Source: Trichlorobacter lovleyi SZ (lineage in GTDB: Bacteria > Desulfobacterota > Desulfuromonadia > Geobacterales > Pseudopelobacteraceae). Taken from it: 32,000 nt of DNA. A model generated the notes under the pieces. It was not told where the DNA came from, searched no databases, and saw only the letters and a program-made list of their open reading frames with translations. The stretch spans positions 150,001-182,000 of the forward strand of contig NC_010814.1 of assembly GCF_000020385.1 (NCBI RefSeq), in the 5' to 3' direction. Every line of letters begins with the position of its first letter. Position 1 is the first letter of the stretch. Of this stretch, positions 14,012 through 29,880 are shown piece after piece. Both the position numbers and the translations under genes were made by a program.

Positions 14012-14230
14012 CTATGCCTGCTCGATCACAAAGCTCGAGCTGCCGGTAAGTGCAATGGTGTCACCGGGATAGAGCTTGCGTCCCCGGCGGGTCTCAACCG
14101 CTCCGTTAACCCGTATCTGGCCTTCCTGAATCACGATCTTGGCCTCACCACCGCTCATGACCAGGTTGGCAAGTTTCAGGAAACTGTCCAGCTTGATGTA
14201 GTCGGTATCGATTGAAATTTTTTCAGACAT
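14012..14230 (-). CDS. S4-domain RNA-binding protein (YbcJ-like)
   Basis: 72 aa, [59 protein letters not shown]…, resembles E. coli YbcJ. The longer ORF (to 14413) runs through comM in another frame and was rejected. Confidence 0.8.
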
Positions 14231-14709: not shown

Positions 14710-14780
14710 TGTGTGCACCTTTCTCTACTATTCTGACTCAAAACGGCACTCGTTCTCAATTCAAATTCCCCTCGAAAAAC
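14695..14780. repeat. Island junction repeat, copy 1 (att-like core plus left arm)
   Basis: CCGCAGGGGCAGGGGTGTGTGCACCTTTCTCTACTATTCTGACTCAAAACGGCACTCGTTCTCAATTCAAATTCCCCTCGAAAAAC recurs nearly identically at 19086 and with more changes at 29007. Confidence 0.8.
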
Positions 14781-16201: not shown

Positions 16202-16468
16202 TTATCTCAATTGACTGTCCTTGCTGCCGCGCCGGTTGTAGAGACTGAAGGTTGTCTGTTGTTTTTCGGCCTCAGCCTGGCATCCAACACAGAGCCTCAC
16301 CCCGGAGATTGCCTTGCGACGCGCTTCCGGGATTGCAGTTTGGCACTCCTCGCAATGAGTCAAGCTATCACCGGTTGGCATCCGGCTACGAACCTGCCCT
16401 ATGGCATCTTCCACGCTAGCGTCAATTTGATCTTGAACCGCCCCATCTCGGGACCAACCAACGGCCAT
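16202..16468 (-). CDS. ybiI: DksA/TraR-family C4 zinc-finger protein (YbiI-like)
   Basis: 88 aa from MAVGWSRDGAVQDQIDASVEDAI… to …CEECQTAIPEARRKAISGVRLCVGCQ…YNRRGSKDSQLR. It closely parallels E. coli YbiI, including the NRRGSKDSQLR end. AGGAG RBS. Confidence 0.85.
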   Translation of the reverse strand: MAVGWSRDGAVQDQIDASVEDAIGQVRSRMPTGDSLTHCEECQTAIPEARRKAISGVRLCVGCQAEAEKQQTTFSLYNRRGSKDSQLR

Positions 16469-16588
16469 GATTCGCTCCTGTTCAACCAAGGTGTCAGACT
16501 CTGAAGTTTTTTTATCCAACTACTCCAGTGTTTTCATTTTCACCGGCAGGTCGAAAGTGTTCGATAATACCGTATCGATTTAATAGAG

Positions 16589-16629
16589 GGGGCGGGTCTG
16601 TTTCACGCATGAACGACCCGCCCCTTTTT
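16589..16629. terminator. GC-rich hairpin between adh and ybiI-like gene, with the T-tract on the + strand side
   Basis: 10-bp stem GGGGCGGGTC / GACCCGCCCC (16589-16598 / 16615-16624), then TTTTT on the + strand. The minus-strand reading lacks a U-tract. Confidence 0.55.
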
Positions 16630-16659
16630 CTTCAATGATCCGTGTAACTTTGCTGATTA

Positions 16660-17811
16660 TTAGAGATCGACTACCTCGCCGTTAAAGCAACGCTCGAATA
16701 TTATTTTCATCTCTTCCGCAGTCGGTTGGCGAGGGTTAGTGCCGGTACAGGGATCGTCCATGGCATTCTGAACCATGGTGTCCAGCTTTTCTTCCCAGAC
16801 CTTCGGGTCAATGCCATAGGACTTGAAGCTATCTTCAATCCCCACACTCTGGCGGAGACGCTCAATCTCCAGGGCAAAATCCTCGACAGTCTTTTTACCG
16901 AGAGCCTGGGCCAAAAGCTGGTATTTGTCTGTGTCAAGACTATTGAAGCGAATCACGTTTGGCATCAGGATGGCGTTGGCGCGACCATGGGGAACACCGA
17001 ACATGCCGCCAATCTGATGGGCAATCGAATGGACGATCCCGAGAATTGCATTGGAAAAGGCCATCCCACCCATGTTGGAGGCGTCGTGCATGGCCTGGCG
17101 AGCCTCAAGGTTGTTGCCGTCTGCATAAGCACGGGGGAGGTTTTCGAAAACCAACCGGACCGAATCCAAGGCAAGCGCATCGGTATATGGGCTGGCCAAT
17201 GCTGCGACGAAGGCCTCTACGTCATGAGACAGTGCGTCCATGCCGGTGTCGGCGGTAACGTTGGGAGGCATGCTCTTGGCCAATTCCCCGTCCACGATGG
17301 CGATGTCGGGGGTAAGCTCATAGGAGACAATCGGATATTTAATCCCTTTGCAAGTGTCAGTGATTATTGTAGCGCAGGTTGCTTCGGTGCCTGTCCCGCT
17401 GGTGGAAGGTATCGCGACAAAGCGTGCCTTATTGCGCAGTGGTTTTATTGTAAATGGCTTGATGATTTCCTCAAAAGTTGCTTCGGGATATTCGTAAAAA
17501 ACCCACATGGCTTTAGCTGCGTCAATGGCCGAACATCCCCCCAGACCAATTATGAGATCAGGGTTCTCACGATTAAAAAACTCCACCCCTCTCAATACTG
17601 TTTCTACTGAAGGATCCGCTTCAACACCTTCGAAAACAGCAGAATCGATACCAGCCTCCCTTAATAAGCTGACGGTCTTGTCCAGGAACCCGAATTTCTT
17701 CATTGAACCGCTACCTGTAACAATAACCGCTTTACGGCCTTCAACCGTTTTCAGGTTTTCCAAAGAGCCAAGCCCGTGATACGTTTTCCGTGGAATGATG
17801 AATGCTGACAT
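16660..17811 (-). CDS. Iron-containing (group III) alcohol dehydrogenase / aldehyde reductase
   Basis: 383 aa from MSAFIIPRKTYHGLGSLENL. GGGS-like motif (GLGGCSAIDAAK) and His-rich metal site (…HSIAHQIGGMFGVPHGRANA). AAGGAG RBS. The 17844 start was rejected. Confidence 0.9.
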   Translation of the reverse strand: MSAFIIPRKTYHGLGSLENLKTVEGRKAVIVTGSGSMKKFGFLDKTVSLLREAGIDSAVFEGVEADPSVETVLRGVEFFNRENPDLIIGLGGCSAIDAAKAMWVFYEYPEATFEEIIKPFTIKPLRNKARFVAIPSTSGTGTEATCATIITDTCKGIKYPIVSYELTPDIAIVDGELAKSMPPNVTADTGMDALSHDVEAFVAALASPYTDALALDSVRLVFENLPRAYADGNNLEARQAMHDASNMGGMAFSNAILGIVHSIAHQIGGMFGVPHGRANAILMPNVIRFNSLDTDKYQLLAQALGKKTVEDFALEIERLRQSVGIEDSFKSYGIDPKVWEEKLDTMVQNAMDDPCTGTNPRQPTAEEMKIIFERCFNGEVVDL

Positions 17812-18010
17812 AATGTTTCTCCTTCTCTCGTTTTTTTGAACCAATTTATAGTCCGATAATATGCAGGATCTATTAATTGATCAATACACGTTTCTCTTGA
17901 AGTCTTGCCTAATTCTATTATATAAAGTACGATACGATAATCAATATGCTAATTTATTGTTTCTTTATACGAAGTGTCGTAATACCGTGACTTACAAGGA
18001 GGGCTTGAAA

Positions 18011-18946
18011 ATGACGCGAGTTTCAGAATCGCAACGAGAAAACAGGTTGGTAGAATTAATTGACTTCCTGGCGACAGGAGAAGGACTCTCTCCCTCCATT
18101 CTCGAGGGGGTACAGTTCATGCGTTCAGACAAGTACACCCCGCCGATTCCGATTATCTATGAGCCTTGTATAGTGATCGTTGGTCAAGGCCGTAAGATTG
18201 GGTACCTGGGAGATCAAGTCTACACCTATGACCCATACAATTACTTGGTGCTTTCGGTGCCGCTACCGTTCGTGTGCGAGACGAAGGCCAGCCCAGAGGA
18301 ACCCTTGCTGGCAGTCTCCATCCGGGTTGATCCGGCTACGTTGGGCGAACTGTTGATGGAAATGGATGATGACACCTCAATGAGTGGAACAGTGCCGCGG
18401 GGGATCTATTCGACACCATTGACCGGTGAACTGATCGATGCCACGGTTAGGTTGCTGGAGTGCCTGCGATCACCCATAGATAGCCGTATCTTAGGGCCAC
18501 AGATCATGAGGGAAATCATCTACAGGGTTCTCTGCGGTGAGCAGGGGGGGGCCTTGCAAGCAGTAGCTGCGCGTCACAGCCGTTTAAGCCAGATTGCCAG
18601 GGTTTTGCGCCGAATTCACACGGCGTATCAGCAAGAGATGAACATCGAAGCCCTTGCTGGGGAGGCCAGCATGAGTGTGTCAACCTTCCACCACAACTTC
18701 AAGGCGGTAACCTCAGTGTCGCCGTTGCAATACCTGAAAAGCATCAGGCTGCACAAGGCGCGGATGCTGATGGTCCAGGATGGCCTCACCGCCAGCAGTG
18801 CCTCTGGGAAGGTCGGCTATGAGAGCGCATCCCAGTTCAGCCGAGAATTCAAGCGATTCTTCGGAAACAGTCCGGCGGATGAAGCCATAAAGCTGCGGGC
18901 ATTGGGACCGGCTTCACTGCACTCTGTCAGCAATACGGGTAACTAA
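18011..18946 (+). CDS. AraC-family regulator with AraC_N (YqhC-like) sensor domain
   Basis: 311 aa from MTRVSESQ (AAGGAGG RBS). The C-terminal double HTH (…STFHHNFKAVTSVSPLQYLKSIRLHKAR…ESASQFSREFKRFFG) is divergent from the adh gene, as in the yqhC-yqhD arrangement. Confidence 0.85.
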   Translation: MTRVSESQRENRLVELIDFLATGEGLSPSILEGVQFMRSDKYTPPIPIIYEPCIVIVGQGRKIGYLGDQVYTYDPYNYLVLSVPLPFVCETKASPEEPLLAVSIRVDPATLGELLMEMDDDTSMSGTVPRGIYSTPLTGELIDATVRLLECLRSPIDSRILGPQIMREIIYRVLCGEQGGALQAVAARHSRLSQIARVLRRIHTAYQQEMNIEALAGEASMSVSTFHHNFKAVTSVSPLQYLKSIRLHKARMLMVQDGLTASSASGKVGYESASQFSREFKRFFGNSPADEAIKLRALGPASLHSVSNTGN

Positions 18947-19029
18947 GCCAGCTAAGATACTTTTAAAAAAATGTCATGCATCTTGCGGAAAAAAACTCAG
19001 CCTGGTGGTTAACGGGGTAAAGTACCGCC

Positions 19030-19101
19030 AAAAGTTGTTTCATTTAGCCGTACAATCGGTTGCTGAAGTCGGATCAGAAAGGTAGCCGCAGGGACAGGGG
19101 T
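19030..19101 (-). pseudogene. comM: Decayed stub of a second comM 3' copy
   Basis: The minus strand reads PCPCGYLSDPTSATDCTAK*, matching the PCPCGYLGDP…C.C start of the comM fragments. It is then interrupted, and homology fades within about 70 bp. Confidence 0.45.
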
Positions 19102-19171
19102 GTGTGCACCTTTCTCTACTATTCTGACTCAAGACGGCACTTGTTCTCAATTCAAATTCCCCTCGAAAAAC
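19086..19171. repeat. Island junction repeat, copy 2
   Basis: CCGCAGGGACAGGGGTGTGTGCACCTTTCTCTACTATTCTGACTCAAGACGGCACTTGTTCTCAATTCAAATTCCCCTCGAAAAAC differs from copy 1 at only a few positions. Confidence 0.8.
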
Positions 19172-19584
19172 AACCTGTTCCCGGTTATCCCGAATTCCCA
19201 ATCACAGTTGGTGAACACATCCGCAAGAAACGGATGGATCTCGGTCTCCTCCAGAGAGAAGTAGCAGAGATCATCGGCGTCACCGAATCCTCTATCTGGA
19301 ACTGGGAGCATGGCACCGAACCAGAACTGCAATATAATCCAAGAATTATCAAATTTCTAGGTTATATTCCGTTCGACTGCCCGGATGACACTGTGGGGCG
19401 GCTTGCGTGGTATAAGAGAGCTATGGGAATGAACCTGGATCATCTGGGTGAAGCTATGGGCCGTGATCCTGAACAATTATCTGACTGGCTGAGTGGAAGA
19501 CATAATCCATTTCTGAAGAACCGGGAGAAGATAGAGCAGTATCTGAAAAATCAAGAAACCTTCCTTCTGCCAGAGAAGAAATAG
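19102..19584 (+). CDS. Tandem-HTH XRE-family protein, island left-end gene (XRE1, copy b)
   Basis: Paralog of 14711..15196 along its whole length. The conserved GTG is at 19102. The TTG at 19060 lies in non-homologous comM-derived DNA and was rejected. Confidence 0.7.
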   Translation: MCTFLYYSDSRRHLFSIQIPLEKQPVPGYPEFPITVGEHIRKKRMDLGLLQREVAEIIGVTESSIWNWEHGTEPELQYNPRIIKFLGYIPFDCPDDTVGRLAWYKRAMGMNLDHLGEAMGRDPEQLSDWLSGRHNPFLKNREKIEQYLKNQETFLLPEKK

Positions 19585-19645
19585 TTGATTGTTTCTTCCG
19601 CAAAGGGAAGCTTTTCATAATTGGAACTTCCGGTACAACCCTTCA

Positions 19646-19984
19646 TCAAAAATCATCATTGACCTTTACCAGTCCACGAATCCGTTTGGGTAGCAGGGCC
19701 AGCTTATCATCGATGTGCCTGCCGAAGGTGTAACGAACTGAATTCTCCTCGTCGTTGAAAAGTTTCACTCCGACTATGTTGGCAACCTCAAACACCAGGC
19801 CGATTTCACATTTCGGATCGCCGCGCTCGATCTTCTGCAAGGTTCTTCTGGAAATCCCCGCCCGTCCGGACAGCTCTTCCTCGGTCATCTTGCGCTCTTT
19901 CCTTCCAAGCCGGATGAGCTTGCCCAGCAGTTCTGCTGCATCTCGGGTCTGACGGAGATATGTACGGTTCACAGGAGAGGCCAT
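19646..19984 (-). CDS. XRE-family HTH protein, HipB-like with C-terminal extension (XRE2, copy a)
   Basis: 112 aa. LIRLGRKERKMTEEELSGRAGISRRTLQKIERGDPKCEIGLVFEVANIVGVKLF. Convergent with XRE1. A near-identical copy lies at 26269..26607. Confidence 0.8.
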   Translation of the reverse strand: MASPVNRTYLRQTRDAAELLGKLIRLGRKERKMTEEELSGRAGISRRTLQKIERGDPKCEIGLVFEVANIVGVKLFNDEENSVRYTFGRHIDDKLALLPKRIRGLVKVNDDF

Positions 19985-20097
19985 AAACCACCGTTAGGCT
20001 ATTATCTTACTCATAATAATACTTATTGAGTACGATAGTAACCAAATGGTGGTAATTAAGTCAAATGCTATACATTCCACAGTTCGCTTTCGCTCTA

Positions 20098-20940
20098 TCA
20101 ACACAATTGAGGTTGCAGGACATTTTTCAGTTTTACTAACGCTCGCTCTTCAATCTGACGTACCCGCTCACGTGAAATGGAAAAGTGGTCCGCAATATCT
20201 TGAAGTGTTAGAGGATCATCATTGGTGATCCTGTGTTCAACAATATATTTCTCTTTTTCGTTCAACCCCTGCAGGGCATGGGCAATTGCTTTCTTCAGTG
20301 AATGCTCCTGCTGATACTCACCGAGCATTTCTTCCTGATTCATCCGGTCGTCAGCAATAGTCTCAAGTATCGTCAGGCCATCGCCCTCAATGATTTCCTC
20401 ATTGAGAGAAACTTCTCCTTTAAGCCGCTGCTCCATTTCTACGACTTCATGATCTGGTACGTGGAGCATACTGGAAACTTCAAATGCGTCGCTATCCCTG
20501 CCGGTTAACTTAAGTAGTGCTTCCTTGGTTTTGCGCAACCCATAAAACAATTTTCTTTGTGCTTGCGTAGTACCAATTTTTACCAGGCTCCAAGCGGAAA
20601 CAATGTAGTTTTGAATGTAAGCACGAATCCACCATACGGCATAAGAAATCAATCGAACCCCTCTATATGGATTGAATTTACGAACCGCCATCATGAGCCC
20701 AATATTGCCCTCCTGAATCAGATCGAGCATTTTCAGGCCGTAATGACGGTATTCGGAAGCGACTTTAACCACATAGCGAAGATTGGAAGTAATGAGGGTA
20801 TGAGCAGCCTCCAGATCCTTTTCCTCAAAGAACTTGACGGCGTAGTCCCTCTCTTCATCTTCTGTAAGTAAATTGAATTTGCGGATTTCGGAAAGATAGA
20901 GGGTAAGACTGTCGGAAATGATTGGCAGATTGGTAACCAT
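20098..20940 (-). CDS. rpoH: RpoH-family (sigma-32-like) heat-shock sigma factor carried on the island
   Basis: 280 aa from MVTNLPII (AGGAGG RBS). Region 2 reads LIQEGNIGLMMAVRKFNPYRGVRLISYAVWWIRAYI. RpoH-box-like QAQRKLFYGLRKTKE. Region 4 HTH reads LQDIADHFSISRERVRQIEERAL. Confidence 0.85.
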   Translation of the reverse strand: MVTNLPIISDSLTLYLSEIRKFNLLTEDEERDYAVKFFEEKDLEAAHTLITSNLRYVVKVASEYRHYGLKMLDLIQEGNIGLMMAVRKFNPYRGVRLISYAVWWIRAYIQNYIVSAWSLVKIGTTQAQRKLFYGLRKTKEALLKLTGRDSDAFEVSSMLHVPDHEVVEMEQRLKGEVSLNEEIIEGDGLTILETIADDRMNQEEMLGEYQQEHSLKKAIAHALQGLNEKEKYIVEHRITNDDPLTLQDIADHFSISRERVRQIEERALVKLKNVLQPQLC

Positions 20941-20969
20941 GACGCACCTCCTGAAAACTTGTATCATGA

Positions 20970-20996
20970 TTAGCACTCTATGGTGCTGACTGCTAA
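20970..20996. promoter_or_regulatory. CIRCE-like inverted repeat (HrcA operator type)
   Basis: TTAGCACTC-N9-GACTGCTAA versus the CIRCE consensus TTAGCACTC-N9-GAGTGCTAA (one mismatch). It lies between the predicted promoter and the start of the rpoH-like gene. Confidence 0.7.
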
Positions 20997-20997
20997 A

Positions 20998-21026
20998 AAT
21001 GTAGCAAATATTTTTAGCAGTTTCAA
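20998..21026 (-). promoter_or_regulatory. Candidate sigma70-type promoter of the rpoH-like gene
   Basis: The minus strand reads TTGAAA-N17-TACATT. The spacer is one arm plus the loop of a second perfect 11-bp inverted repeat, CTGCTAAAAAT-N9-ATTTTTAGCAG (20990-21020), that shares an arm with the CIRCE-like site. Confidence 0.5.
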
Positions 21027-21085
21027 GTAGAAAATCAATATAAGCTACATAATATCAGCGTGTTAACCTTACTAAAAAAACATCT

Positions 21086-21122
21086 CTTCCCCCCTTGATT
21101 TTTTGAAAACAGGAATTATTTA
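21086..21122 (+). promoter_or_regulatory. Candidate sigma32-type promoter of the hsp20 operon
   Basis: TCTTCCCCCCTTGAT (compare the E. coli sigma32 extended -35, TCTC-CCCTTGAA), a 14-nt spacer, then AATTATTTA (a weak match to CCCCATNTA, only ATNTA kept). About 40 nt upstream of the first hsp20 ATG. Confidence 0.45.
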
Positions 21123-21160
21123 TTGATCAGAAAGTCACACATCGAAAGGAGGTAATCCAC

Positions 21161-21610
21161 ATGGCAACCTGGGATGTATTCAAAGAACTGGACACACTGA
21201 GAAGGGAGATCGATGAAGCTTTTCGTGGCGCTGGTTACAGCCGTCCATTTGGCCCGACATTCCTTTCGCCGGTAACAACCCGCCGCTTCCCGCTGGTTAA
21301 CTTCAGCGAGGACGAAGGGCATGTCTATATTGAGGCACTGGTTCCCGGCGTAGATCCAAAGGATGTCGATCTGTCCGTACTACGGAACACTGTCACCATT
21401 AGTGGCGAGCGCAAACCGTTTGTCGAAACGGAAGGCCAGATCGTGCATCGCTCGGAACTCGGCTCCGGCAAGTTCTCCCGCACGTTGGAACTGCCGGTCG
21501 ACATCGACCCTGAGAAGATTTCGGCCCAGTGCAAAGACGGTATCATGCAGATAACACTGGCCAAGGCAGAACATGCCAAGCCAAAGAAAATCGAAATCAG
21601 ACTTTCGTAA
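21161..21610 (+). CDS. Hsp20/alpha-crystallin small heat-shock protein 1
   Basis: 149 aa, alpha-crystallin domain (…YIEALVPGVDPKDVDLSVLRNTVTISGERK…GKFSRTLELPVDIDPEKISAQCKDGIMQITLAK). GAAAGGAGG RBS. Confidence 0.9.
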   Translation: MATWDVFKELDTLRREIDEAFRGAGYSRPFGPTFLSPVTTRRFPLVNFSEDEGHVYIEALVPGVDPKDVDLSVLRNTVTISGERKPFVETEGQIVHRSELGSGKFSRTLELPVDIDPEKISAQCKDGIMQITLAKAEHAKPKKIEIRLS

Positions 21611-21643
21611 TCACACAGACCACTTGGAAAGGAGGTAATTATC

Positions 21644-22042
21644 ATGGCAGCAAACAGCTTGACCGAAAGAAATGATGAACGGAATGTTCAGGCTCGTGAA
21701 GAAACACGGTCGAATGAGAAATATATCCGCCCGGCGGTGAATATCATCGAGACCGAAGAAGGACTTGTCCTTACCGCAGATATTCCCGGTGCATCCAAGG
21801 AAGCTCTCGATGTCAACGTCGAAAAAGGCATCCTGACCATCACTGCGCCGGCCCAGCATACCACGCAGGGAACCTCTGCATATCGTGAATTCGAACTGGC
21901 CAGTTACTACCGGCAGTTCACGATTCCTGAAAGCCTCGACCATGAAAAAGCAAAGGCAGAGTATGTCAACGGTATTCTGACCCTGAAGGTGCCTAAGGCG
22001 GAGGTCGCCAAACCAAAACGGATTTCCGTACAGGTCGGGTAA
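21644..22042 (+). CDS. Hsp20/alpha-crystallin small heat-shock protein 2
   Basis: 132 aa (…LVLTADIPGASKEALDVNVEKGILTITA…YRQFTIPESLDHEKAKAEYVNGILTLKVPK). GAAAGGAGG RBS. Confidence 0.9.
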   Translation: MAANSLTERNDERNVQAREETRSNEKYIRPAVNIIETEEGLVLTADIPGASKEALDVNVEKGILTITAPAQHTTQGTSAYREFELASYYRQFTIPESLDHEKAKAEYVNGILTLKVPKAEVAKPKRISVQVG

Positions 22043-22071
22043 GGAAGGAGCATTAACGGGAGGTGATCACA

Positions 22072-22554
22072 ATGTCTAACCTGTTGCCTGAAAGATGGAG
22101 TGAGGCGCTGGAGCGGGTTAACGACAAGATCGGCCATTTCCTGACCAAGGTGGCGCCATGGAAGAAACAGGAACAGTCACCTGAAAGGATAACAACCGAT
22201 ACCCTTCCAGCATTCATGAAACTTGGTGGTCCGCTGCTGGACATGCATGAGACCCCTGAAGAGCTGATTGTCAGGGCAGAAGTACCGGGACTGAATAAAG
22301 ATGACTTTTCAGTCGAGCTTGTCGGCAGGCGGTTGACAATACATGGAGAGAAGAAAATCGTACGAGAACAGAAAGGGGGTGATGGGTGCCTTATTTCAGA
22401 ACGCAGGTACGGCAGTTTTTCCCGCAGCATCTCGCTGCCGTACGATATAGATGAGAAGACCATTAAAGCGGACCTCAAACAGGGGGTCCTCACGGTCCGG
22501 CTCCCAAAGCCGGAAAAGGAACAGCATACCCGCTATCGGGTGCCTGTCTCCTGA
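22072..22554 (+). CDS. Hsp20/alpha-crystallin small heat-shock protein 3
   Basis: 160 aa from ATG 22072 (GGGAGGTG RBS; the GTG at 22063 is less likely). …LIVRAEVPGLNKDDFSVELVGRRLTIHGEKK…GSFSRSISLPYDIDEKTIKADLKQGVLTVRLPK. Confidence 0.9.
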   Translation: MSNLLPERWSEALERVNDKIGHFLTKVAPWKKQEQSPERITTDTLPAFMKLGGPLLDMHETPEELIVRAEVPGLNKDDFSVELVGRRLTIHGEKKIVREQKGGDGCLISERRYGSFSRSISLPYDIDEKTIKADLKQGVLTVRLPKPEKEQHTRYRVPVS

Positions 22555-22570
22555 ATCAGCAGATTGTACC

Positions 22571-22592
22571 GAGGGCCGCTTCAGCGGCCCTC
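22571..22592 (+). terminator. Hairpin after the third hsp20 (possible partial terminator or attenuator)
   Basis: GAGGGCCGC-TTCA-GCGGCCCTC, a 9-bp perfect stem with only a weak T-rich tail (ACTATTTC). Confidence 0.4.
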
Positions 22593-22628
22593 ACTATTTC
22601 GGCAGGGTAATAATGGCAGGTGAACGTT

Positions 22629-23573
22629 ATGAACAACTACCAGGACTACTACAAAACACTCGGCGTCGAGAAAAAAGCAACTCAGGATGAAATCCAGCGG
22701 GCGTATCGCAAGCTGGCTCGCAAATACCATCCTGACATTAATAAGGAAAGCTCCGCTGAGGAAAAGTTCAAACAGCTCAATGAAGCCTACGAGGTTCTGG
22801 GTGACCCGGAAAAAAGAGCCAAGTATGATCATCTCGGCAGCGGTTGGGATGGGCAATTTGCCAATCAGGGTTATCAGGATGGCGATAATGTCCAATACCA
22901 TTACTCCAATGCCGACCCGGGGCAGTTCAGTGACTTCTTCCAGAACCTGTTCGGTGGTGGCGGATGGAACTTCACGGAGGAAAGCAATTTTCATGGTGGC
23001 GGCGTCAGGAGGCGTCGGGGGCGCGACCATGAAACCGCCATCAACATATCATTGGCTGATGCCTACCATGGCGCAAAGAAGAGCATCGAACTAGAGCGGG
23101 CTGAACTGGGCAGTGACGGCAGGCCGACCAGAACCAGGCGCAGCTATGATATCACCATCCCCCAAGGAGTGACTGATGGCTCCTTGATCCGCCTGGCTAA
23201 CCAAGGCGGGAGCGGGAGCGGTGGTGGAGATGCAGGAGACCTGTTTCTGCGGGTGAACATACTTCCCGATAGTCGCTTCACGCTCAACGGACACGACCTT
23301 GCCACTACCGTTGATATAGCTCCCTGGGAGGCTGCCCTGGGAGGGAAAGTCTTGGTGCCTACTGTCGATGGGCGCATTAACCTTTCCGTGCCCGCCGGCA
23401 CCCAAAGCGGTCAGAGCCTGCGGGTGCGTGGAAAGGGAATGCCGGTCGCCCCGGGCAGGTTCGGCGACCTGCTGGTAAATGTCCGCATTGTTGTGCCACA
23501 GCATCTCACAGCCAGGGAGCGGCACCTCTTTGAAGAACTGGCAAAAGAATCACGATTTGAGCCGCGAAAGTAA
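22629..23573 (+). CDS. cbpA: DnaJ-class co-chaperone without zinc finger (CbpA type)
   Basis: J-domain [35 protein letters not shown]-rich linker, no CxxCxGxG repeats, and C-terminal substrate-binding domains. Followed by a cbpM-like gene. Confidence 0.85.
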
Positions 23574-23586
23574 CTGAGGTACAGCC

Positions 23587-23889
23587 ATGACAGTCCAACA
23601 CTATGAAATTATTATCAGCAGAAAGCATGAACTGGTCTCCGTGCCGGGGATAACCATCCATGAGTTGAGCAGGCTGTGCGATTGTCACCTGACGGTGGCG
23701 AGACGGCTCTTCTCAATCGGCCTCATTGAACCGTTGACTGCCGGAGATACTCCGCTGTTTGATCAAAGCGCCGTGGTTCGGGCACGCAAAGCACTGCGAC
23801 TGAAACGGGACCTGCGGCTCAATTTCGATGCCATTGCCCTGGTAATGGATTTACTTGACCGCATCGACGAACTGGAACGACGAATATAA
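23587..23889 (+). CDS. cbpM: Chaperone-modulator protein CbpM (MerR-like)
   Basis: 100 aa directly downstream of cbpA. MerR-like HTH (ITIHELSRLCDCHLTVARRLFSIGLI) and C-terminal LVMDLLDRIDELERR, typical of CbpM. Confidence 0.75.
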   Translation: MTVQHYEIIISRKHELVSVPGITIHELSRLCDCHLTVARRLFSIGLIEPLTAGDTPLFDQSAVVRARKALRLKRDLRLNFDAIALVMDLLDRIDELERRI

Positions 23890-23914
23890 GCAATACCCTG
23901 ACAGGAGCTCAACC

Positions 23915-25042
23915 ATGATACAGAAAACTGCCGATCCGTTCCTGCGCCGCCTGCGTTGGTTGACCATCGCCGTTATCACCGTACTGTTTGCCTGGCATGC
24001 CCTGTCATGGGCAGACCGGGCTTTCCAGAAAGAATCGGCAACCCCACGTGCGGTTACCGCCCGCGGCGATCTGGCTGCCGATGAGAAATCGACCATTGAA
24101 CTGTTCGAGCGTTCACGAGATTCGGTCGTGTATATATCGACTTCAGAACGGGTCATGGACTTCTGGAGCCGCAATATCTTCACCATACCTCGTGGTACTG
24201 GATCAGGTTTCATCTGGGACGATAAAGGGCATATTGTAACAAACTTTCATGTTATCGAAGGGGCTTCAGAGGCCCGGGTCAGATTGTCGGACGGCAAGGA
24301 GTACAAGGCCAGTCTGGTCGGCGCCAGCCCCATGCACGATCTTGCTGTGCTGAAGATCGGCACCCGCTTCAAAGGACATTCGCTGCCGGTTGGCACCTCA
24401 CACAACCTGAAGGTCGGCCAGAAGGTCTTTGCCATCGGCAACCCGTTCGGTCTCGACTGGACCCTGACCACCGGGATCGTCTCTGCTCTGGACCGGTCAT
24501 TGAAGGGAGAATCCGGCAGCATCATCGAGCATCTGATCCAGACCGATGCCGCCATCAACCCGGGCAACTCCGGTGGGCCACTCCTTGATTCAGCCGGCCG
24601 GCTCATCGGCATCAATACCGCTATTTACAGTCCGTCCGGCGCATCAGCCGGAGTAGGGTTTGCCGTGCCGGTGGATACCGTCAACCGGGTGGTTCCACAA
24701 CTGATTGGTCAAGGGAAATATGTTCGTCCATCCCTGGGAATTGAAATTGACCAGGATCTCAACGAGGCGATTACGGAGCAGCTTGGCGTCAAAGGTGTGG
24801 CAATACTTAAGGTGCGTTCAAATTCTCCGGCAGCGCGGGCAGGGTTCAGAGGCATAACCATTAATCGTGACCGAACAATTACTCCTGGTGATATAATTAC
24901 AGCCGTACAAGGAAAACAGGTCGAAACGATTCCCAAATTGCTGGCTCGATTGGATGACTTCAAAGTGGGCGATACGGTGACCATCACCATTCTCCGTGAT
25001 GGCAAACAGCAGCAGCGCAGCGTTCAGTTGCAGGCAGAGTAA
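23915..25042 (+). CDS. S1C (DegS/HtrA-type) serine protease with N-terminal membrane anchor and one PDZ domain
   Basis: 375 aa from MIQKTADPF (CAGGAG RBS). Triad contexts are TNFHVIEG, HDLAVLKI and GNSGGPLL. C-terminal PDZ (…GDIITAVQGKQVETIPKLLARL…). Confidence 0.85.
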   Translation: MIQKTADPFLRRLRWLTIAVITVLFAWHALSWADRAFQKESATPRAVTARGDLAADEKSTIELFERSRDSVVYISTSERVMDFWSRNIFTIPRGTGSGFIWDDKGHIVTNFHVIEGASEARVRLSDGKEYKASLVGASPMHDLAVLKIGTRFKGHSLPVGTSHNLKVGQKVFAIGNPFGLDWTLTTGIVSALDRSLKGESGSIIEHLIQTDAAINPGNSGGPLLDSAGRLIGINTAIYSPSGASAGVGFAVPVDTVNRVVPQLIGQGKYVRPSLGIEIDQDLNEAITEQLGVKGVAILKVRSNSPAARAGFRGITINRDRTITPGDIITAVQGKQVETIPKLLARLDDFKVGDTVTITILRDGKQQQRSVQLQAE

Positions 25043-25067
25043 GCACAATCAAGCCAGGAGAAGCGGA

Positions 25068-25676
25068 ATGCCCCAAAACATTGACGATCTTATACAACGG
25101 ATCAAGGAACTGCAGGAGGAACTTGAAGTCGAGTTCAAGAAGAAACGGGACGAATTCGAGTTCATCATCGAAAAGAAACGGGTTCGTTTTGCCGAGGAGG
25201 TGGCACGGCAGCAACGTCGGTTGAAAATCGGCTGGTTCCGCTATCTGATCAAATCAAGACCGCTCAATGTCCTGACCGCTCCGGTTATTTACGCGGGGTT
25301 CATCCCCTTTATGATCCTGGATCTGTTTCTCTGGCTCTATCAGTCGATCTGCTTTCCGGTGTATGGTATTCCCAAGGCAAAGCGCTCCGATTATCTGATT
25401 TTCGACCGGGAAGACCTCCCGTACCTGAACGTCATCGAGAAGTTCAACTGTTTCTACTGTTCCTATGGCAACGGACTCATGGCCTATGGCCGGGAGATTG
25501 CGGCCCGGACCGAGCAGTACTGGTGCCCGATCAAGCATGCCCGCCGGATCAAGGCGGCACACGAACATTATCCGCGCTTCTTCGAGTACGGCGATGCTGA
25601 GAGTTGGCAAAAAGGGCTGGAACGGCTGCGTCGGCAATATCCAAAAGAACAACAACCTGCAACCGAGGTGAAGTGA
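25068..25676 (+). CDS. Membrane protein of unknown function (coiled-coil N-terminus, hydrophobic hairpin, Cys-rich C-domain)
   Basis: 202 aa from MPQNIDDL (AGGAG RBS). Hydrophobic stretch LNVLTAPVIYAGFIPFMILDLFLWLYQSICFPVY, then CFYCSYGNG…WCPIKH. Tightly packed between the protease and the thioredoxin. Family not recognised. Confidence 0.6.
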   Translation: MPQNIDDLIQRIKELQEELEVEFKKKRDEFEFIIEKKRVRFAEEVARQQRRLKIGWFRYLIKSRPLNVLTAPVIYAGFIPFMILDLFLWLYQSICFPVYGIPKAKRSDYLIFDREDLPYLNVIEKFNCFYCSYGNGLMAYGREIAARTEQYWCPIKHARRIKAAHEHYPRFFEYGDAESWQKGLERLRRQYPKEQQPATEVK

Positions 25677-25677
25677 C

Positions 25678-26121
25678 ATGGCTACGGCAAGCTACCTGAT
25701 TTCCTGCCCATCCTGCGGCACTGGCAACCGCATCCCGGCCGATAAAGAGGGTGTGCGGGGGCGCTGCGGCAACTGCAAGTCAGCATTGCCGCCGCTGTAT
25801 TGCCATCCACAGCAGATGACCGACCGGACCTTCGACTCTTTCATCAACTCCTATCCCGGTCCGGTGCTGGCAGAGTTTTGGGCACCCACCTGACCGCACT
25901 GCCACACCTTCGCACCGGTGGTGCGAACCGTAGCTGAAAAACTGGCCGGCCAGGCCGCAGTAGTGCAGATCAATACCCAGGACAATCCAAATCTGGCAGC
26001 CCGATTCGGTATCAGGGGTATTCCGGTCATTGTGCTGTTGAAACAGGGACGTGTTGTCGATCAATTACCAGGAGCACATCCGCTTGATGCGGTGCTGGCA
26101 TGGTTCCGTCGAAAGGTATGA
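25678..26121 (+). CDS. Trx2-type thioredoxin (N-terminal zinc ribbon) with in-frame TGA at the first active-site Cys position; probable selenoprotein (UxxC)
   Basis: The two track ORFs (25678..25893 and 25918..26121) are in the same frame, separated only by TGA 25891-25893. The read-through gives …VLAEFWAPT-U-PHCHTFAPVVRTVAEKLAG…ARFGIRGIPVIVLLKQGRVVD…, colinear with E. coli TrxC (…DFWAPWCGPCRNFAP…[21 protein letters not shown]…), with U aligned to the first Cys. N-terminal CPSC…CGNC zinc ribbon as in Trx2. Confidence 0.8.
25909..25927 (+). other. SECIS-like hairpin downstream of the in-frame TGA
   Basis: UUCGCAC(C)-GGU-(G)GUGCGAA: a 7 to 8-bp stem with a GGU apical loop. The stem starts 15 nt after the TGA, which is bacterial SECIS-like geometry with G/U in the loop. 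Confidence 0.6.
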
Positions 26122-26199
26122 TAAATTTTGAACTTGATTTCTGCTAAACGGAGAAAAATACAAACTTCAGCAGCACCATGTTAATTCTGTCTAAAGGTT

Positions 26200-26235: not shown

Positions 26236-26268
26236 CGAATATATTTTTTCGTGAAAGGAAAAATCACA

Positions 26269-26607
26269 TCAAAAATCATCATTGACCTTTACCGGTCTAC
26301 GTACCCGCTTGGGCAGCAGGGCCAGCTTATCGTCAATGTGCCTGCCGAAGGTGTAACGAATTGAATTCTCCTCATCGTTGAAAAGCTTTACTCCGACTAT
26401 ATTGGCAACCTCGAACACCAGGCCGATTTCACATTTCGGATCGCCGCGCTCGATCTTCTGCAAGGTCCTTCTGGAAATCCCCGCCCGTCCGGACAGCTCT
26501 TCCTCGGTTATCTTGCGTTCTTTTCTGCCAAGCCGGATGAGTTTACCCAACAGCTCAGCGGCATCCCGGGTCTGACGGAGATATGTGCGGTTAACTGGAG
26601 AGGCCAT
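26269..26607 (-). CDS. XRE-family HTH protein (XRE2, copy b), downstream of fic
   Basis: 112 aa from MASPVNRTYLRQ, differing from copy a at only a handful of residues. The 26646 start was rejected by comparison with copy a. Confidence 0.8.
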   Translation of the reverse strand: MASPVNRTYLRQTRDAAELLGKLIRLGRKERKITEEELSGRAGISRRTLQKIERGDPKCEIGLVFEVANIVGVKLFNDEENSIRYTFGRHIDDKLALLPKRVRRPVKVNDDF

Positions 26608-26709
26608 AAAAAACACCAAATGGATATTATCGCAATCGCTAAACAATTGTATGGATACGATAGTATCCGTTTAGGTAAAGATCTAATGAAACGCGGGAAG
26701 CATGAAAGC

Positions 26710-28236
26710 TTACTCAACGCGGCACGAACGGACGAAAGCGGCAAATGGTCGTATATCGCCACCGAATGAGGCAGCATCAAGCGCTTCCATGTATTCTTTA
26801 CGTCGGTCCACCGGAATGATAGTCCAACTGAAACCGCCCGAAGCGAGCATGGCGTTCATCAGGAAACGACCGATCCTGCCGTTGCCATCCATGTAGGGGT
26901 GAATGTAGACAAAGATGAAGTGACCCAGCACCCCCCTGACAGCAGAAGAGGACTCAGCTTCAAGCAGATCACATAACTCCGGCATCATCTCGCGCACAGC
27001 CTCCTTCGAAGGGGGCACATGGGCGGCGTTGCGGATATACACCTGTGCGTTGCGGTATCCCGCAAGATCGACAGCCGACAGGATGCCGGCATCCACACTG
27101 GGCGAAAACAGACTGCGGTGCCAGGCGGCATGGTCTGAACGGAATGCCGTGCCCGGGTTTGCACCTGAAAATATCCTGCGGATCGTGGCCATGACTTCAT
27201 TGTGGGCCAACCAATAACCGCGCGCAGCCATGGCATTGCGCGACTCGGAATCCTCCCGGGTATTTTCCGGGTTCCAGTCACCACGGGATACACGACTGAT
27301 CAGTTCATCGGATACCCGGTATCCTTCTATGGAGAGAGAGTGGTAGGCATCCAGTTGATACTGCTCTTCAATACGGGACATGAAGAGATCGATATTTTCA
27401 GGAATCCCCGGTTCCTGTGGAAACAGTTCAAGAACCGGCTGGCGCATCTCATGCCACATGAGTCGTATCCGCAGAGCATGGCGGGATTCGCTGTGCGTCA
27501 GCAGATTCATCGGCAGAAGTTCCTCAAAAGGATTGGATTCCGTAACCATGTATCCGCCAGAACGCATGGTTGCCAGAATCTGATCGGCATGTTCCGCCCG
27601 CCCGACAGCTCGCAACGCTCCGGCAAGTCTGCCGGCGATTGTGCTGTGTCCACCCTCCAGAAGTTCCCGGAGAAGAGTGGATACATCCCTGACCCCGGAC
27701 AGCACAATTTGCGCATCACGGGCATGGTTTCGGTAAAAGGAGGGCGGAGCCTTTATCAGGGCGGTTTCAGGCATGAGAACGCGGAGAGTGCCGACCATCG
27801 TCACTTTGTCGGCAGTCATGGATTCCACAGCTTTGTAGTCAAAAAGACTGCAACCGTTCGGCAGGGAGAGAGTTCCGTTCTTTGCCAGGGGGGAGTGGAC
27901 CGTGACCTGTTTCGGCAACAGTGTGCTACCGGCATGGAGGGACAGGGACAGGTCGGGTGACACATGCCAGTTATCACCGAACCGTTCCGTGCAGTACCCG
28001 GCAATAAACTCACGCATGGCAGCAAACCAGGGGGTGCTGTCACCCATCTGTTCATCAGGACGGGACGGCATATACCAACCCTTGAGGATCTGTCTCAGGA
28101 AGCCGTTTTTTACAAGCGATGACAACTGGATTCGCTTGAGTTCAGTTGACTTGATGACGGATTTCCCGTCATCCTGCAGTTTTTTCAGGACAGTCAGGGC
28201 ATCTGCCAGATGTTGCTGAGTCGGACTGGTCTTCAT
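26710..28236 (-). CDS. Fic-domain protein (508 aa) with intramolecular inhibitory-helix-like motif
   Basis: Fic motif HPYMDGNGRIGR (HxFx[D/E]GNGRxxR with F to Y). Upstream, SLSIEG fits the [S/T]xxxE[G/N] alpha-inh motif. The long N-terminal region is unassigned. Confidence 0.9.
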   Translation of the reverse strand: MKTSPTQQHLADALTVLKKLQDDGKSVIKSTELKRIQLSSLVKNGFLRQILKGWYMPSRPDEQMGDSTPWFAAMREFIAGYCTERFGDNWHVSPDLSLSLHAGSTLLPKQVTVHSPLAKNGTLSLPNGCSLFDYKAVESMTADKVTMVGTLRVLMPETALIKAPPSFYRNHARDAQIVLSGVRDVSTLLRELLEGGHSTIAGRLAGALRAVGRAEHADQILATMRSGGYMVTESNPFEELLPMNLLTHSESRHALRIRLMWHEMRQPVLELFPQEPGIPENIDLFMSRIEEQYQLDAYHSLSIEGYRVSDELISRVSRGDWNPENTREDSESRNAMAARGYWLAHNEVMATIRRIFSGANPGTAFRSDHAAWHRSLFSPSVDAGILSAVDLAGYRNAQVYIRNAAHVPPSKEAVREMMPELCDLLEAESSSAVRGVLGHFIFVYIHPYMDGNGRIGRFLMNAMLASGGFSWTIIPVDRRKEYMEALDAASFGGDIRPFAAFVRSCRVE

Positions 28237-28288
28237 GGTCGCCTTGCTGTTACACGATTATTATGATCAAGCATTACAAGATTATTGT

Positions 28289-28519
28289 TGAAGTGGCAAG
28301 GGGATTGCGGTCGTGGTGGATCGCGGGGACGTACCTTGAACTCGCTGTCTGCCAGTGTTCATTGGTTGGTCCCAAACAAATCTGCATAGATTTAGTTACG
28401 CAGTGAGCTGCTTTGAGCTCTTCAAATGCTACAGGACTGATGCGACCATTAGCACTGTGGCGGCGGTTACGATTGTAGTCAACTTCAATATACTCAAACA
28501 CTGATCTCGGTAATGTCAC
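28289..28519 (-). mobile_element. IS3-family insertion-sequence relic (3' end of orfB plus terminal inverted repeat)
   Basis: The minus strand encodes …FEYIEVDYNRNRRHSANGRISPVAFEE…, the conserved C-terminal end of IS3-family DDE transposases. The + strand TGAAGTGGCAAGGGG at 28289 looks like an IS3-type TG-initiated terminal repeat. Everything upstream of the transposase tail is missing. Confidence 0.7.
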
Positions 28520-28540: not shown

Positions 28541-29021
28541 TCACGATGTCTTCCTATCCAAACTCCGATACTGGATCGCCTCGGCCAGGTGCTGGTCGCG
28601 GATAGCTTCTGACCCGGCCAGATCGGCAATGGTGCGGGCAACCTTCAGAATACGGGAGTAGCTGCGGGCGGAGAATCCCAGTTTTTCTCCGGCCAGTTCC
28701 AGCATTCGGTGCCCGTTCTGGTCAAGTTCACAGTGTTTCTTGATCAGGCGGGCGTTCATCTGGGCGTTGCAGTGGACCTTGGTCCCTTTGAAGCGCTCCT
28801 GCTGCAGGTTTCTGGCCTGGGTTACCCGAGCCGCGATTGCGGCAGAGCTTTCAGTTTCACGGCTGTCAGACAGGTCACGGTAGGCGACGGCAGGAACTTC
28901 AACATGCAGGTCAATCCGATCCAGCAGTGGCCCTGAAATACGGGAACGATAACGTTTGATGGCGATGGGTGTGCAACTGCAAGTATGCGAAATATCTCCT
29001 AAAAATCCACAAGGACAGGGG
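28541..29021 (-). pseudogene. comM: comM 3' fragment B (divergent, lower-GC copy)
   Basis: PCPCGFLGDISHTCSCTPIAIKRYRSRISGPLLDRIDLHVEVP…AIQYRSLDRKTS*, colinear with fragment A. It has many nucleotide differences (roughly four in five positions identical by eye). Upstream residues come from junction copy 3. Confidence 0.85.
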
Positions 29022-29092
29022 TGTGTTAACCTTTCTCTACAATTCTTATGTAAGACGGCACTCGTTCTCAATCGAAATTCCCCTCGAAAAGC
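29007..29092. repeat. Island junction repeat, copy 3 (most divergent)
   Basis: CCACAAGGACAGGGGTGTGTTAACCTTTCTCTACAATTCTTATGTAAGACGGCACTCGTTCTCAATCGAAATTCCCCTCGAAAAGC. Confidence 0.8.
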
Positions 29093-29508
29093 TACCACTC
29101 CCCGGCTATCCCACCAATCCCGTGACCATCGGTGACCACATCCGCAAACGGCGAATGGATCTCGGTCTTCTCCAGAGAGAAGTCGCGGAAATCATCGGCG
29201 TTACTGAGTCTTCGGTCTGGAATTGGGAACACGGAGTGGAACCAGAACTGCAATATAATCCAAGAATTATCAAATTTCTAGGTTATATTCCGTTCGACTG
29301 TCCGGATGACACAGTGGGGCGGCTTGCGTGGTACAAGAGAGCGATGGGGATGAACCTGGATCATCTAGGTGAAGCGATGGGCCGTGATCCGGAACAACTG
29401 TCGGATTGGTTGAGTGGCCGGCATAATCCGTTTCGGAAGAACCGGGAGAAGATCGAGCTGTTTCTGGAAAACCAGAAGACCTTCCTTCTTCCAGAGAAAA
29501 GACGGTGA
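29023..29508 (+). CDS. Tandem-HTH XRE-family protein, island left-end gene (XRE1, copy c)
   Basis: Paralog of copies a and b (PGYPTNPVTIGDHIRKRRMDLGLLQREVAEIIGVTESSVWNWEHG…). Conserved GTG at 29023. The ATG at 28969 lies in comM-derived DNA and was rejected. Confidence 0.7.
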   Translation: MLTFLYNSYVRRHSFSIEIPLEKLPLPGYPTNPVTIGDHIRKRRMDLGLLQREVAEIIGVTESSVWNWEHGVEPELQYNPRIIKFLGYIPFDCPDDTVGRLAWYKRAMGMNLDHLGEAMGRDPEQLSDWLSGRHNPFRKNREKIELFLENQKTFLLPEKRR

Positions 29509-29565
29509 ATATCTTCTCCCGCAAAGGAAAACATTCAATACCTTGACTTCCTGCACGACCTGTCG

Positions 29566-29880
29566 TCAGAATTCATTATTGACCATTATCACTCTGCGAA
29601 CCCGCTTGGGCAGCAGTGCCAGCTTATCCTCAACGTGCCTCCCGTAGTTGTAGCGGTTCGAATTCTCTTCATCGCGGAAAAGCTTCACCCCAACCAGGTT
29701 GGCGACCTCGACACCAGGCCGATCTCACATTTCTGGTCGCTGCGCTCGATCTTCTGCAAGGTCCTTCTAGAAATCGCACCCGAAACCACAACAATCATGG
29801 TCGATGGCAAAGAGAAGACGATTCCGCTGTAGCAAGTGCAAGTCGGTAACCTGCTTCTTGTCAAGCCCGACGAGCGCATA
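29566..29880 (-). pseudogene. Degenerate third copy of XRE2
   Basis: Nucleotide homology to 19646..19984 runs from the stop (TCAGAATTCATTATTGACC versus TCAAAAATCATCATTGACC) onward. A 1-nt deletion near 29710 and a non-homologous block at about 29770-29850 break the frame. Only a 64-aa piece (…RRTLQKIERSDQKCEIGLV…) stays open. Confidence 0.6.

Follow-up and report, generated by a model that had tools for sequence, protein, structure and literature searches.

In this study, we analysed a 32-kb stretch of the Trichlorobacter lovleyi SZ genome (CP001089; hereafter called the window, with protein accessions ACD93894 to ACD93928), in which a gene for an RpoH-type sigma factor on the minus strand is divergent from a closely packed plus-strand operon of eight genes (positions 20098-26121). 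It is likely that this locus is an accessory proteostasis cassette exchanged horizontally among the Geobacterales, in which a paralogous sigma-32, here named RpoH-M, is placed under a CIRCE operator (an inverted repeat that controls chaperone expression) and the divergent operon is served by a promoter of the sigma-32 type. The operon encodes three small heat-shock proteins (sHSPs), a CbpA-like J-domain protein with a CbpM-like partner, an HtrA-type protease, a Cys/His membrane protein and a thioredoxin that very probably contains selenocysteine. The interpretation offered in a first-pass annotation, which had been made from the sequence alone, was largely right.

A probable additional sigma-32 and its control region

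RpoH-M (ACD93915.1; 20098..20940, minus strand) is a protein of 280 amino acids (aa) from its ATG, preceded by the ribosome-binding site (RBS) GGAGGTG, and it contains the Pfam Sigma70 regions r1.2, r2, r3 and r4. Against the equivalog model TIGR02392 (rpoH_proteo) it scored 332.4 bits, above the curated cut-off of 323.1, which agrees with the RpoH-family sigma factor, divergent from a plus-strand cluster, that the first-pass annotation had proposed. The RpoH box, which lies between regions 2 and 3 and has the motif Q(R/K)(K/R)LFFNLR, is present as QRKLFYGLRK; the QRKLFYGLR portion carries two clade-specific substitutions, and the canonical RpoH proteins of the Geobacterales read QRKLFFKL(R/N) at the same place.

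To place this protein among its relatives, rpoH loci were surveyed in one genome per species, giving at least 80 loci. In a neighbour-joining tree, the RpoH-M clade was separate from canonical Geobacterales RpoH, the latter tracking genera. The two groups also differed in their surroundings. Among the loci listed, rpoH genes encoding proteins at least 70% identical to RpoH-M were divergently linked to hsp20, except for L014 and L019, where hsp20 was not found nearby, and L020, where a contig of 3.4 kb has an hsp20-like fragment alone beside rpoH; those at 61-69% identity (Geomonas, Geotalea, Oryzomonas, Pelotalea, Geomobilimonas and many metagenome-assembled genomes, or MAGs) were all without hsp20 linkage. 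Both types were present in two MAGs: JAQUCQ01, in which a gene encoding a product 100% identical to RpoH-M (L015) and another at 66% (L061) have protein accessions in one series, and GCA_013334345.1, in which contig 10 (L001) bears the cassette and contig 68 (L113) a canonical rpoH that adjoins genes for a histidine kinase and a sigma-54 activator. The presence of both types in these MAGs suggests that RpoH-M is an extra sigma-32 and not the sole one.

The region between rpoH-M and hspA, the first gene of the operon, is compact. Transcription of rpoH-M is predicted to start from a sigma-70-like promoter (20998..21026, minus strand; TTGAAA, 17 nt, TACATT), with 9 of 12 matches and a TG ahead of the -10. 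Directly downstream of this -10, between promoter and start codon, the rpoH-M leader contains a CIRCE operator, the predicted HrcA site (20970..20996), which reads TTAGCACTC-N9-GACTGCTAA and has one mismatch to the consensus TTAGCACTC-N9-GAGTGCTAA; 0.03 sites would be expected by chance at three or fewer mismatches. On the other strand, the hsp20 operon has a sigma-32-type promoter (21090..21121, plus strand) consisting of the -35 element CCCCCTTGAT (21090-21099) and the -10 element AATTATTT (21114-21121).

Phylogenetic footprinting, for which the divergent region of ~220 bp was aligned from 13 cassette variants with sigma factors 70-100% identical, revealed that the two RBSs, both CIRCE half-sites and the rpoH -35 and -10 elements (TTGA and TATAT blocks) are conserved and that the 9-nt CIRCE spacer drifts. 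Upstream of hspA, the conserved block is CC(C/T)CTTGA(T/C), followed 16-17 nt on by TTAT (in the window copy, CCCTTGAT...TTAT). A C-run ahead of TTGA is a hallmark of the -35 element of sigma-32 promoters such as those of Escherichia coli groE and dnaK P1, and with its C-run and TTGA the hspA -35 matches that of dnaK P1 (TCTCCCCCTTGAT). In its -10 element, the promoter is similar to the alpha-proteobacterial CYTATNT type and to a predicted site reported earlier, CTTGAcA-N13-aCttAT (PMC545781). The sigma32-type promoter named in the first-pass annotation is, therefore, conserved across the cassette variants.

The same promoter can also be read as a sigma-70 promoter (TTGATT/TTGACA, 16 nt, TATTTA/TATTTT), and it occurs, together with the RBS, upstream of a copy of the operon that has no rpoH (L099, in G. 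sulfurreducens CP010430) and of a core hsp20 cluster in Geoanaerobacter pelophilus (L098). The retention of the promoter at these two loci suggests that the host sigma-32 probably also drives the operon and that RpoH-M may be dispensable for its expression. Taken further, these observations could mean that the sigma gene and the operon are mere neighbours, the operon being read by sigma-70 or by the host sigma-32 and RpoH-M serving other targets or being redundant. We consider this very unlikely, since the divergent rpoH-M/hspA-hspB order and the length of the intergenic region are kept over the whole range of 70-100% sigma identity (apart from L014, L019 and L020) while the cargo varies, and since the C-run ahead of TTGA is itself conserved.

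CIRCE sites with two or fewer mismatches were found 44-89 nt upstream of 67 of the 68 canonical rpoH genes (L028-L094, L113) and of 26 of the 27 cassette-type genes. HrcA-CIRCE control upstream of rpoH has been reported for G. sulfurreducens, in a study that found hrcA in six of seven delta-proteobacterial genomes, Geobacter species included and T. lovleyi not among the seven (PMC545781). Our counts suggest that HrcA control of sigma-32 extends beyond G. sulfurreducens and is order-wide in the Geobacterales; a CIRCE upstream of rpoH would then be ancestral in the order and no special feature of the cassette. The CIRCE-like operator recognized in the first-pass annotation is thus real and conserved across variants, but it does not distinguish the locus in the way that had been claimed, and the description of the module as self-regulated was overstated, because CIRCE depends on HrcA from the host and there is no hrcA within the window. 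A half-site variant, TTAGCAGTC, is common to the cassette and to the Trichlorobacter/Pelobacter-like canonical rpoH genes, so that RpoH-M appears to have arisen by duplication of a Geobacterales rpoH, with the operator retained. An Rfam scan of the window at gathering thresholds gave no matches and hence no ROSE (repression of heat-shock gene expression) thermometer.

Exchange and mosaicism of the cassette

RpoH-M is 100% identical to MBT0663590.1 of G. pelophilus, a protein labelled MULTISPECIES, and 48 collection blocks contain an identical HspA. With L001-L006, the window has positions 19068-26127 in common; the limits are sharp, nucleotide homology beginning at 19068-19095 and ending at 26127, six bases past the thioredoxin stop codon. 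Among the matches listed, the left flanks are unrelated, with genes for trehalose synthesis, FeoAB and a P-type ATPase, two-component proteins or Hsp33. The cassette is ~6 kb long, or 7 kb when its two helix-turn-helix (HTH) genes are counted; these are XRE-type genes with HTH_3 matches that encode proteins of 174 aa (19060-19584, plus strand) and 112 aa (19646-19984, minus strand), and both accompany the cassette in copies of the lovleyi/pelophilus type and are also part of a repeat unit (repeat families D1, D2, D4 and D5). The G+C content is 0.43-0.55 in the cassette segment versus ~0.60 at 1-10 kb of the window.

The T. lovleyi copy is a mosaic. Its left half, from the 174-aa HTH protein through CbpM, is nearest to copies of the pelophilus type, mostly with 100% protein identity (HspC, 92%; CbpA, 96%), and its right half is nearest to the anodireducens/Geomesophilobacter type (HtrA, 97-99%; the 202-aa membrane protein, 98-99%; thioredoxin, 85-90%), a type of cassette that also carries a PsiE gene. 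Insertion sequences (ISs) accompany some copies. In MAG GCA_013334345.1, an IS (DDE_Tnp_1, L001:8693-9781) lies between rpoH-M and hspA at the place that corresponds to window positions 21038-21044. The alignments that flank this IS have 7 bp in common, possibly a target duplication, and the element parts the two divergent promoters, both of which are retained. In G. sulfurreducens CP010430, the operon without rpoH (L099, 5906-10606) is situated between two DDE_Tnp_1_4 IS copies, and further genes from the same pool accompany it (DCC1-like, PNPOx, SOUL, GSHPx, DUF2127 and DUF6448); this rpoH-less copy indicates that the parts of the cassette reassort. Based on its variable presence, foreign composition and differing insertion contexts, it is concluded that the cassette is horizontally exchanged and mobile.

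A number of observations nevertheless weigh against an accessory cassette with a second sigma-32. The direct evidence for two rpoH types comes from two MAGs, in which binning errors are possible. In the species-level scan for a second rpoH, neither T. lovleyi SZ nor G. pelophilus was among the rpoH loci listed; neither species appeared by name among the best 120 matches in a search for canonical RpoH; and SZ was not among the cluster members of any of ten canonical RpoH sequences looked up. Cassette-type loci of greater divergence, with RpoH 70-75% identical, consist of rpoH and two or three hsp20 genes and nothing more, and they may be stable chromosomal features of their lineages. Neither an integrase nor a defined att site was found in the 32-kb window. 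The sigma-70 reading of the hspA promoter and its occurrence at L099 and L098, described above, belong here as well.

Some of these points would fit an ordinary chromosomal heat-shock locus, that is, a sole rpoH beside sHSP genes, vertically inherited and lying next to a recombination hot spot. Such a locus would be expected to have the CIRCE operator that is found at nearly all canonical rpoH genes (67 of 68) and was reported for G. sulfurreducens (PMC545781), and a second rpoH was not directly seen in SZ. In addition, the right flank, from a DCC1-like gene through VIT1, is the same in L001-L006, the closest relatives are all within the Geobacterales, and a core paralogue cluster of two hsp20 genes, the Cys/His protein gene and the thioredoxin gene exists. 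We regard this explanation as quite unlikely, however. RpoH-M falls outside the canonical clade and is identical across two genera, two MAGs have both types, the flanks differ, the cassette is mosaic and some copies have IS elements. Furthermore, G. sulfurreducens PCA and G. metallireducens have one rpoH each (PMC2700814), the G. metallireducens gene being of the canonical type, and the cassette-type sigma named for G. anodireducens was found on no contig longer than 117 kb. The first-pass annotation had itself held that a sole rpoH in conserved synteny, with no island features, would speak against its interpretation; what we found was a separate clade, two genomes with both types and differing flanks. 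Its description of the module as island-borne is supported by those flanks, the mosaicism, the low G+C content, the repeats and the sigma factor common to two genera, but not by an integrase or att site. The published description of the G. lovleyi genome (PMC3403914) makes no mention of rpoH, heat shock or this region.

The surroundings of the cassette are rich in repeats. Between 10.7 and 32 kb, the window contains three copies of a comM 3' fragment with two HTH genes, plus an IS3-type remnant. The repeat unit, at 14223-15220, 19040-19984, 26267-26646 and 28541-29775 (three copies 74-91% identical and a fourth that is partial), consists of a ~175-aa comM/yifB (Mg-chelatase-like) 3' fragment on the minus strand, an overlapping gene for a ~174-aa HTH protein on the plus strand and a gene for a 112-aa HTH protein on the minus strand, and cargo segments sit between its copies. 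It resembles a scar left where DNA has repeatedly integrated or recombined at a site derived from comM; an intact comM, like an integrase, is absent from the window. In other genera (L002-L005, L016), the cassette likewise comes with such comM-HTH fragments, which also flank rpoH in Pelobacter propionicus (L014). The IS remnant, a short open reading frame (ORF) whose product is similar to the C terminus of an IS3-family (rve) transposase (28274-28519, minus strand), lies beside the third comM fragment. To the left of the cassette, the cargo at 15200-19000 comprises a DksA/TraR-type zinc-finger gene, an iron-containing alcohol dehydrogenase gene and a divergent AraC regulator gene; MAG GCA_013334345.1 (L001) has this segment at 98% identity, and the other genomes with a cassette lack it. 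To the right (26269-28236, minus strand), a gene encoding a Fic-domain protein of 508 aa precedes a paralogue of the 112-aa HTH gene, with 91% nucleotide identity to the one near rpoH. The two may form a Fic toxin/regulator pair; the Fic family also occurs in Geomobilimonas luticola, and the segment takes the place of the DCC1-like to VIT1 block that other genomes have on this side of the cassette.

Products of the operon and a possible mechanism

Gaps of 1-74 nt lie between the operon genes, which are all on the plus strand, and the close packing described in the first-pass annotation is therefore confirmed; the count of nine genes becomes eight, because the thioredoxin is one gene read through a UGA codon. 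The ORF map and profile searches bore out all the genes that had been proposed, at the coordinates given. The three sHSPs match PF00011: HspA (149 aa, 21161..21610, E = 1.6e-21), HspB (132 aa, 21644..22042, E = 5e-19) and HspC (160 aa, 22072..22554, E = 2.6e-23). The next gene (22629..23573) encodes a class-B, CbpA-like J-domain co-chaperone of 314 aa with Pfam DnaJ and DnaJ_C domains, an HPD motif in its translation and no zinc-finger domain. It is followed after 13 nt by the gene for a CbpM-like MerR_2 protein of 100 aa (23587..23889; PF13591, E = 1.5e-19), which reproduces the CbpA/CbpM architecture of a J-protein with a downstream MerR_2 protein. Both members of the pair scored below the NCBIfam equivalog cut-offs (238.6 bits against 403 for curved-DNA-binding protein, and 34.9 against 138 for CbpM), so we refer to them as CbpA-like and CbpM-like. 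A role of the MerR_2 protein as a regulator of the HspR/HAIR type was considered and set aside: the NCBIfam match was weak (E = 2e-4), no HAIR-like repeat was read in the intergenic region, and the CbpM-like role is preferred. The HtrA/DegS-type serine protease (23915..25042) has Trypsin_2 and PDZ_2 domains (one PDZ), an N-terminal membrane anchor or signal sequence, and legible catalytic His, Asp and Ser motifs.

The last gene (25678..26121) encodes a TrxC-type thioredoxin of 147 aa with an N-terminal zinc ribbon, and it has a TGA in frame at 25891-25893. When this UGA is read through, the active site becomes T-U-P-H-C: the codon is at the position of the catalytic Cys, where Trx-GI and TrxC have WCGPC, and the fold continues downstream. 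With U replaced by C, the protein matched NCBIfam TrxC with E = 1.2e-32. The UGA is kept in all six distinct thioredoxin versions recovered, including a core paralogue of G. pelophilus that is ~72% identical, and NCBI assemblies annotate a 147-aa product for the gene (L001, L004). On the strength of these comparisons, the insertion of selenocysteine, which the first-pass annotation had also proposed, is very likely. A candidate selenocysteine insertion sequence (SECIS)-like hairpin (25909..25927, plus strand) lies 15 nt past the UGA and consists of an 8-bp stem, UUCGCACC/GGUGCGAA, and the loop GGU. It is the centroid fold, but its energy z-score of -0.59 relative to shuffled sequences is not significant, and it had no match in Rfam. 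Among codons for invariant amino acids, the third position is invariant in 4 of 5 within the hairpin versus 8 of 65 elsewhere (hypergeometric p ~0.002), which points to a constraint at the RNA level. Since the cassette carries a selenoprotein on mobile DNA, its useful transfer would be restricted to hosts that have the selenocysteine machinery; no selA, selB, selC or selD gene lies inside the window.

Between the protease and thioredoxin genes lies the gene for the Cys-rich membrane protein noticed in the first-pass annotation (202 aa, 25068..25676), for which a profile search had been recommended; that search gave no Pfam or NCBIfam match. A coiled coil at the N terminus of the protein is followed by a long hydrophobic helix and then by a C-terminal domain with the invariant residues C95, C128-x2-C131, C153, H157 and H165. 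Its family amounts to 1340 representative clusters at 50% identity. Homologues ~45% identical occur on Paraburkholderia, Caballeronia and Polymorphobacter replicons, one beside cbpM and two among stress genes; among the plasmid loci (L095 and L096), that on Paraburkholderia pOLGA1 has a homologue near cbpM, BON-domain, universal-stress and VIT genes. Structure prediction with AlphaFold2 from a 32-sequence alignment gave an all-helical model of low confidence (pLDDT 70, pTM 0.39), and a Foldseek search of the model against the PDB returned nothing with E < 2.8, and no clue to function emerged.

The gene for the 202-aa protein is always followed by that for the thioredoxin, which starts one nucleotide after it. 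The same pair is found in the core genome of G. pelophilus, where a paralogue cluster (L098:7967-10065, contig 2) comprises two hsp20 genes, a gene for a 195-aa Cys/His protein and one for a 149-aa UGA thioredoxin, with a sigma-54 activator gene downstream. The pairing is thus conserved, and this core mini-cluster is a likely ancestor or template of the mobile operon. We infer that the 202-aa protein is anchored in the membrane and serves the thioredoxin as a zinc or thiol-redox partner. A function as a zinc-binding anti-sigma factor was rejected, as its CxxC lacks the His of HxxxCxxC and paralogues occur with no adjacent sigma gene.

It can be envisioned that, in unstressed cells, the HrcA protein of the host, kept active by GroEL, would bind CIRCE and silence rpoH-M in parallel with the host rpoH. 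Protein-folding stress would inactivate HrcA, whereupon RpoH-M would accumulate and the host rpoH would be de-repressed too, and RpoH-M, probably together with the host sigma-32, would fire the hsp20 operon. The products would include three sHSP holdases, a CbpA-like J-protein that, with its CbpM-like modulator, would feed clients to the host DnaK, an envelope HtrA protease related to DegP-GI, and a putative thiol-redox (repair) pair formed by the membrane Cys/His protein and the selenocysteine TrxC. The operon would then be induced by heat, its promoter would be one that RpoH-M recognizes, and its products would be expected to protect the cell against heat or oxidants.

A more far-reaching proposal, which we put forward tentatively and think somewhat doubtful, is that RpoH-M is a dedicated portable sigma factor. 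The cassette would be a plug-in regulon that needs only the widespread HrcA/GroEL sensor of its new host and amplifies the heat-shock signal at its operon, and the altered RpoH box might allow RpoH-M to escape part of the DnaK/FtsH feedback that the host exerts on sigma-32. It would then be the first mobile sigma-32 regulon and might represent an evolutionary stage, related to the transmissible stress-tolerance locus (tLST), that predates the acquisition of ClpK.

Comparison with known systems

The tLST and locus of heat resistance (LHR) islands matter in food safety and hospital hygiene, and their environmental origin and regulation are poorly understood. Our data indicate that a related proteostasis module circulates among subsurface metal- and organohalide-respiring Geobacterales. 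A module with its own sigma-32 wired to the HrcA sensor of the host is unusual and suggests how a stress regulon becomes portable, and it provides a testable case of sigma-factor paralogy by horizontal transfer. The analysis also ties a large uncharacterised protein family, that of the 202-aa protein, to a thioredoxin and sHSP context. In bioremediation strains such as T. lovleyi SZ, the cassette may affect stress tolerance in the field. In the titles and abstracts of the literature that we searched, which dealt with other organisms and topics, we met with no account of a transferable stress island that carries a sigma-32 gene.

The J-protein and MerR_2 genes are reminiscent of the E. coli cbpA-cbpM operon, in which a class-B J-protein without a zinc-finger domain is likewise followed immediately by a MerR_2 protein of ~100 aa. 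That operon is controlled by sigma-S and Lrp, whereas the pair described here, which falls below the NCBIfam equivalog cut-offs for both proteins, is part of a heat-shock operon.

The sigma gene itself has a counterpart in the canonical rpoH of G. sulfurreducens, which has the same operator at -51 from the start codon, compared with -56 here (PMC545781). In G. sulfurreducens, however, rpoH is a single housekeeping gene with no adjacent hsp20 (GSU0655; PMC2700814), whereas the cassette gene is an additional, mobile copy that is linked to an operon of its own. The shared operator at a similar distance suggests the same wiring in both cases, from HrcA to sigma-32 to the heat-shock genes.

Another parallel is the rpoH1 cluster of Bradyrhizobium japonicum, which Narberhaus et al. 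reportedly described in 1996 and in which rpoH1 is said to be grouped with hspA, hspB, hspC and groESL1. The two systems share a supplementary sigma-32 paralogue that is physically grouped with three sHSP genes and coexists with another rpoH, in the case of the cassette in the two MAGs. Unlike the cassette, the B. japonicum cluster is chromosomal, is controlled by ROSE RNA thermometers rather than CIRCE and has no J-protein, HtrA or thioredoxin genes; to our knowledge, it does not move between genera. Multiple rpoH paralogues are known from rhizobia (PMC3989490).

A further comparison, in terms of gene content, is with the tLST, LHR and TLPQC-1 islands of the Enterobacteriaceae and Pseudomonas aeruginosa clone C, a likeness that the first-pass annotation had aptly drawn. 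The HtrA protease of the cassette is an orthologue of DegP-GI, the trypsin-like orf16 protease encoded at the end of the tLST on Klebsiella, Enterobacter and E. coli plasmids, with which it shares 63% identity across 98% of its length. In sister variants of the cassette (L011, L012 and L016), though not in the window, a PsiE protein 52% identical to PsiE-GI is encoded directly upstream of the protease, as in the tLST. The remaining similarities are weaker: the thioredoxin is 33% identical to Trx-GI, both being of the zinc-ribbon TrxC type, with UPHC in the cassette and CGPC in Trx-GI, and the sHSPs show identities of 32-42% with their two tLST counterparts, sHSP20 (orf2) and sHSP20-GI (orf7), the highest value being that of HspC with sHSP20 (42%). 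The reference tLST (L112) has clpK, but the cassette has none: ORF maps and Pfam scans revealed no ClpK/ClpG-type AAA+ gene anywhere in the window, as had been noted before, and there is no Clp-type gene in the flanks of cassette loci L001-L013. At the YfdX1, YfdX2 and HdeD-GI genes of L112 there was no tblastn match to the cassette proteins, and no such Pfam domains were found among the window ORFs; KefB-GI, HtpX, orf11 and the orf1 MerR-like regulator are also absent from the window.

One explanation may be that the locus is a reduced member of the tLST/LHR/TLPQC group that acts as those islands do, being highly expressed, either constitutively or in stationary phase, and thereby making cells extremely resistant to heat. 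The protease and PsiE identities and the position of PsiE would fit this explanation, as would the presence of sHSPs with a TrxC-type thioredoxin, and tLST components have been noted in delta-proteobacteria, along with a sigma-24-like factor on a Methylobacillus island (PMC8290217). We consider it unlikely, given the tLST genes that are missing and the modest sHSP and thioredoxin identities. Moreover, the tLST is transcribed from a promoter upstream of orf1 with no heat induction (PMC8290217), in contrast to the CIRCE and sigma-32-type control predicted here.

An accessory Geobacterales cassette thus remains the preferred interpretation, and its relationship to the tLST can be described as one of partial kinship. 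Both are sets of horizontally transferred xenologues of core proteostasis genes in which several sHSPs are combined with a TrxC-type thioredoxin and an HtrA/DegP protease; the cassette differs in its Geobacterales hosts and in adding a CbpA/CbpM-like pair, a Cys/His membrane protein and a sigma-32 paralogue under CIRCE control. In conclusion, the cassette is not itself a tLST, but it shares with the tLST both a sub-module and a design principle.

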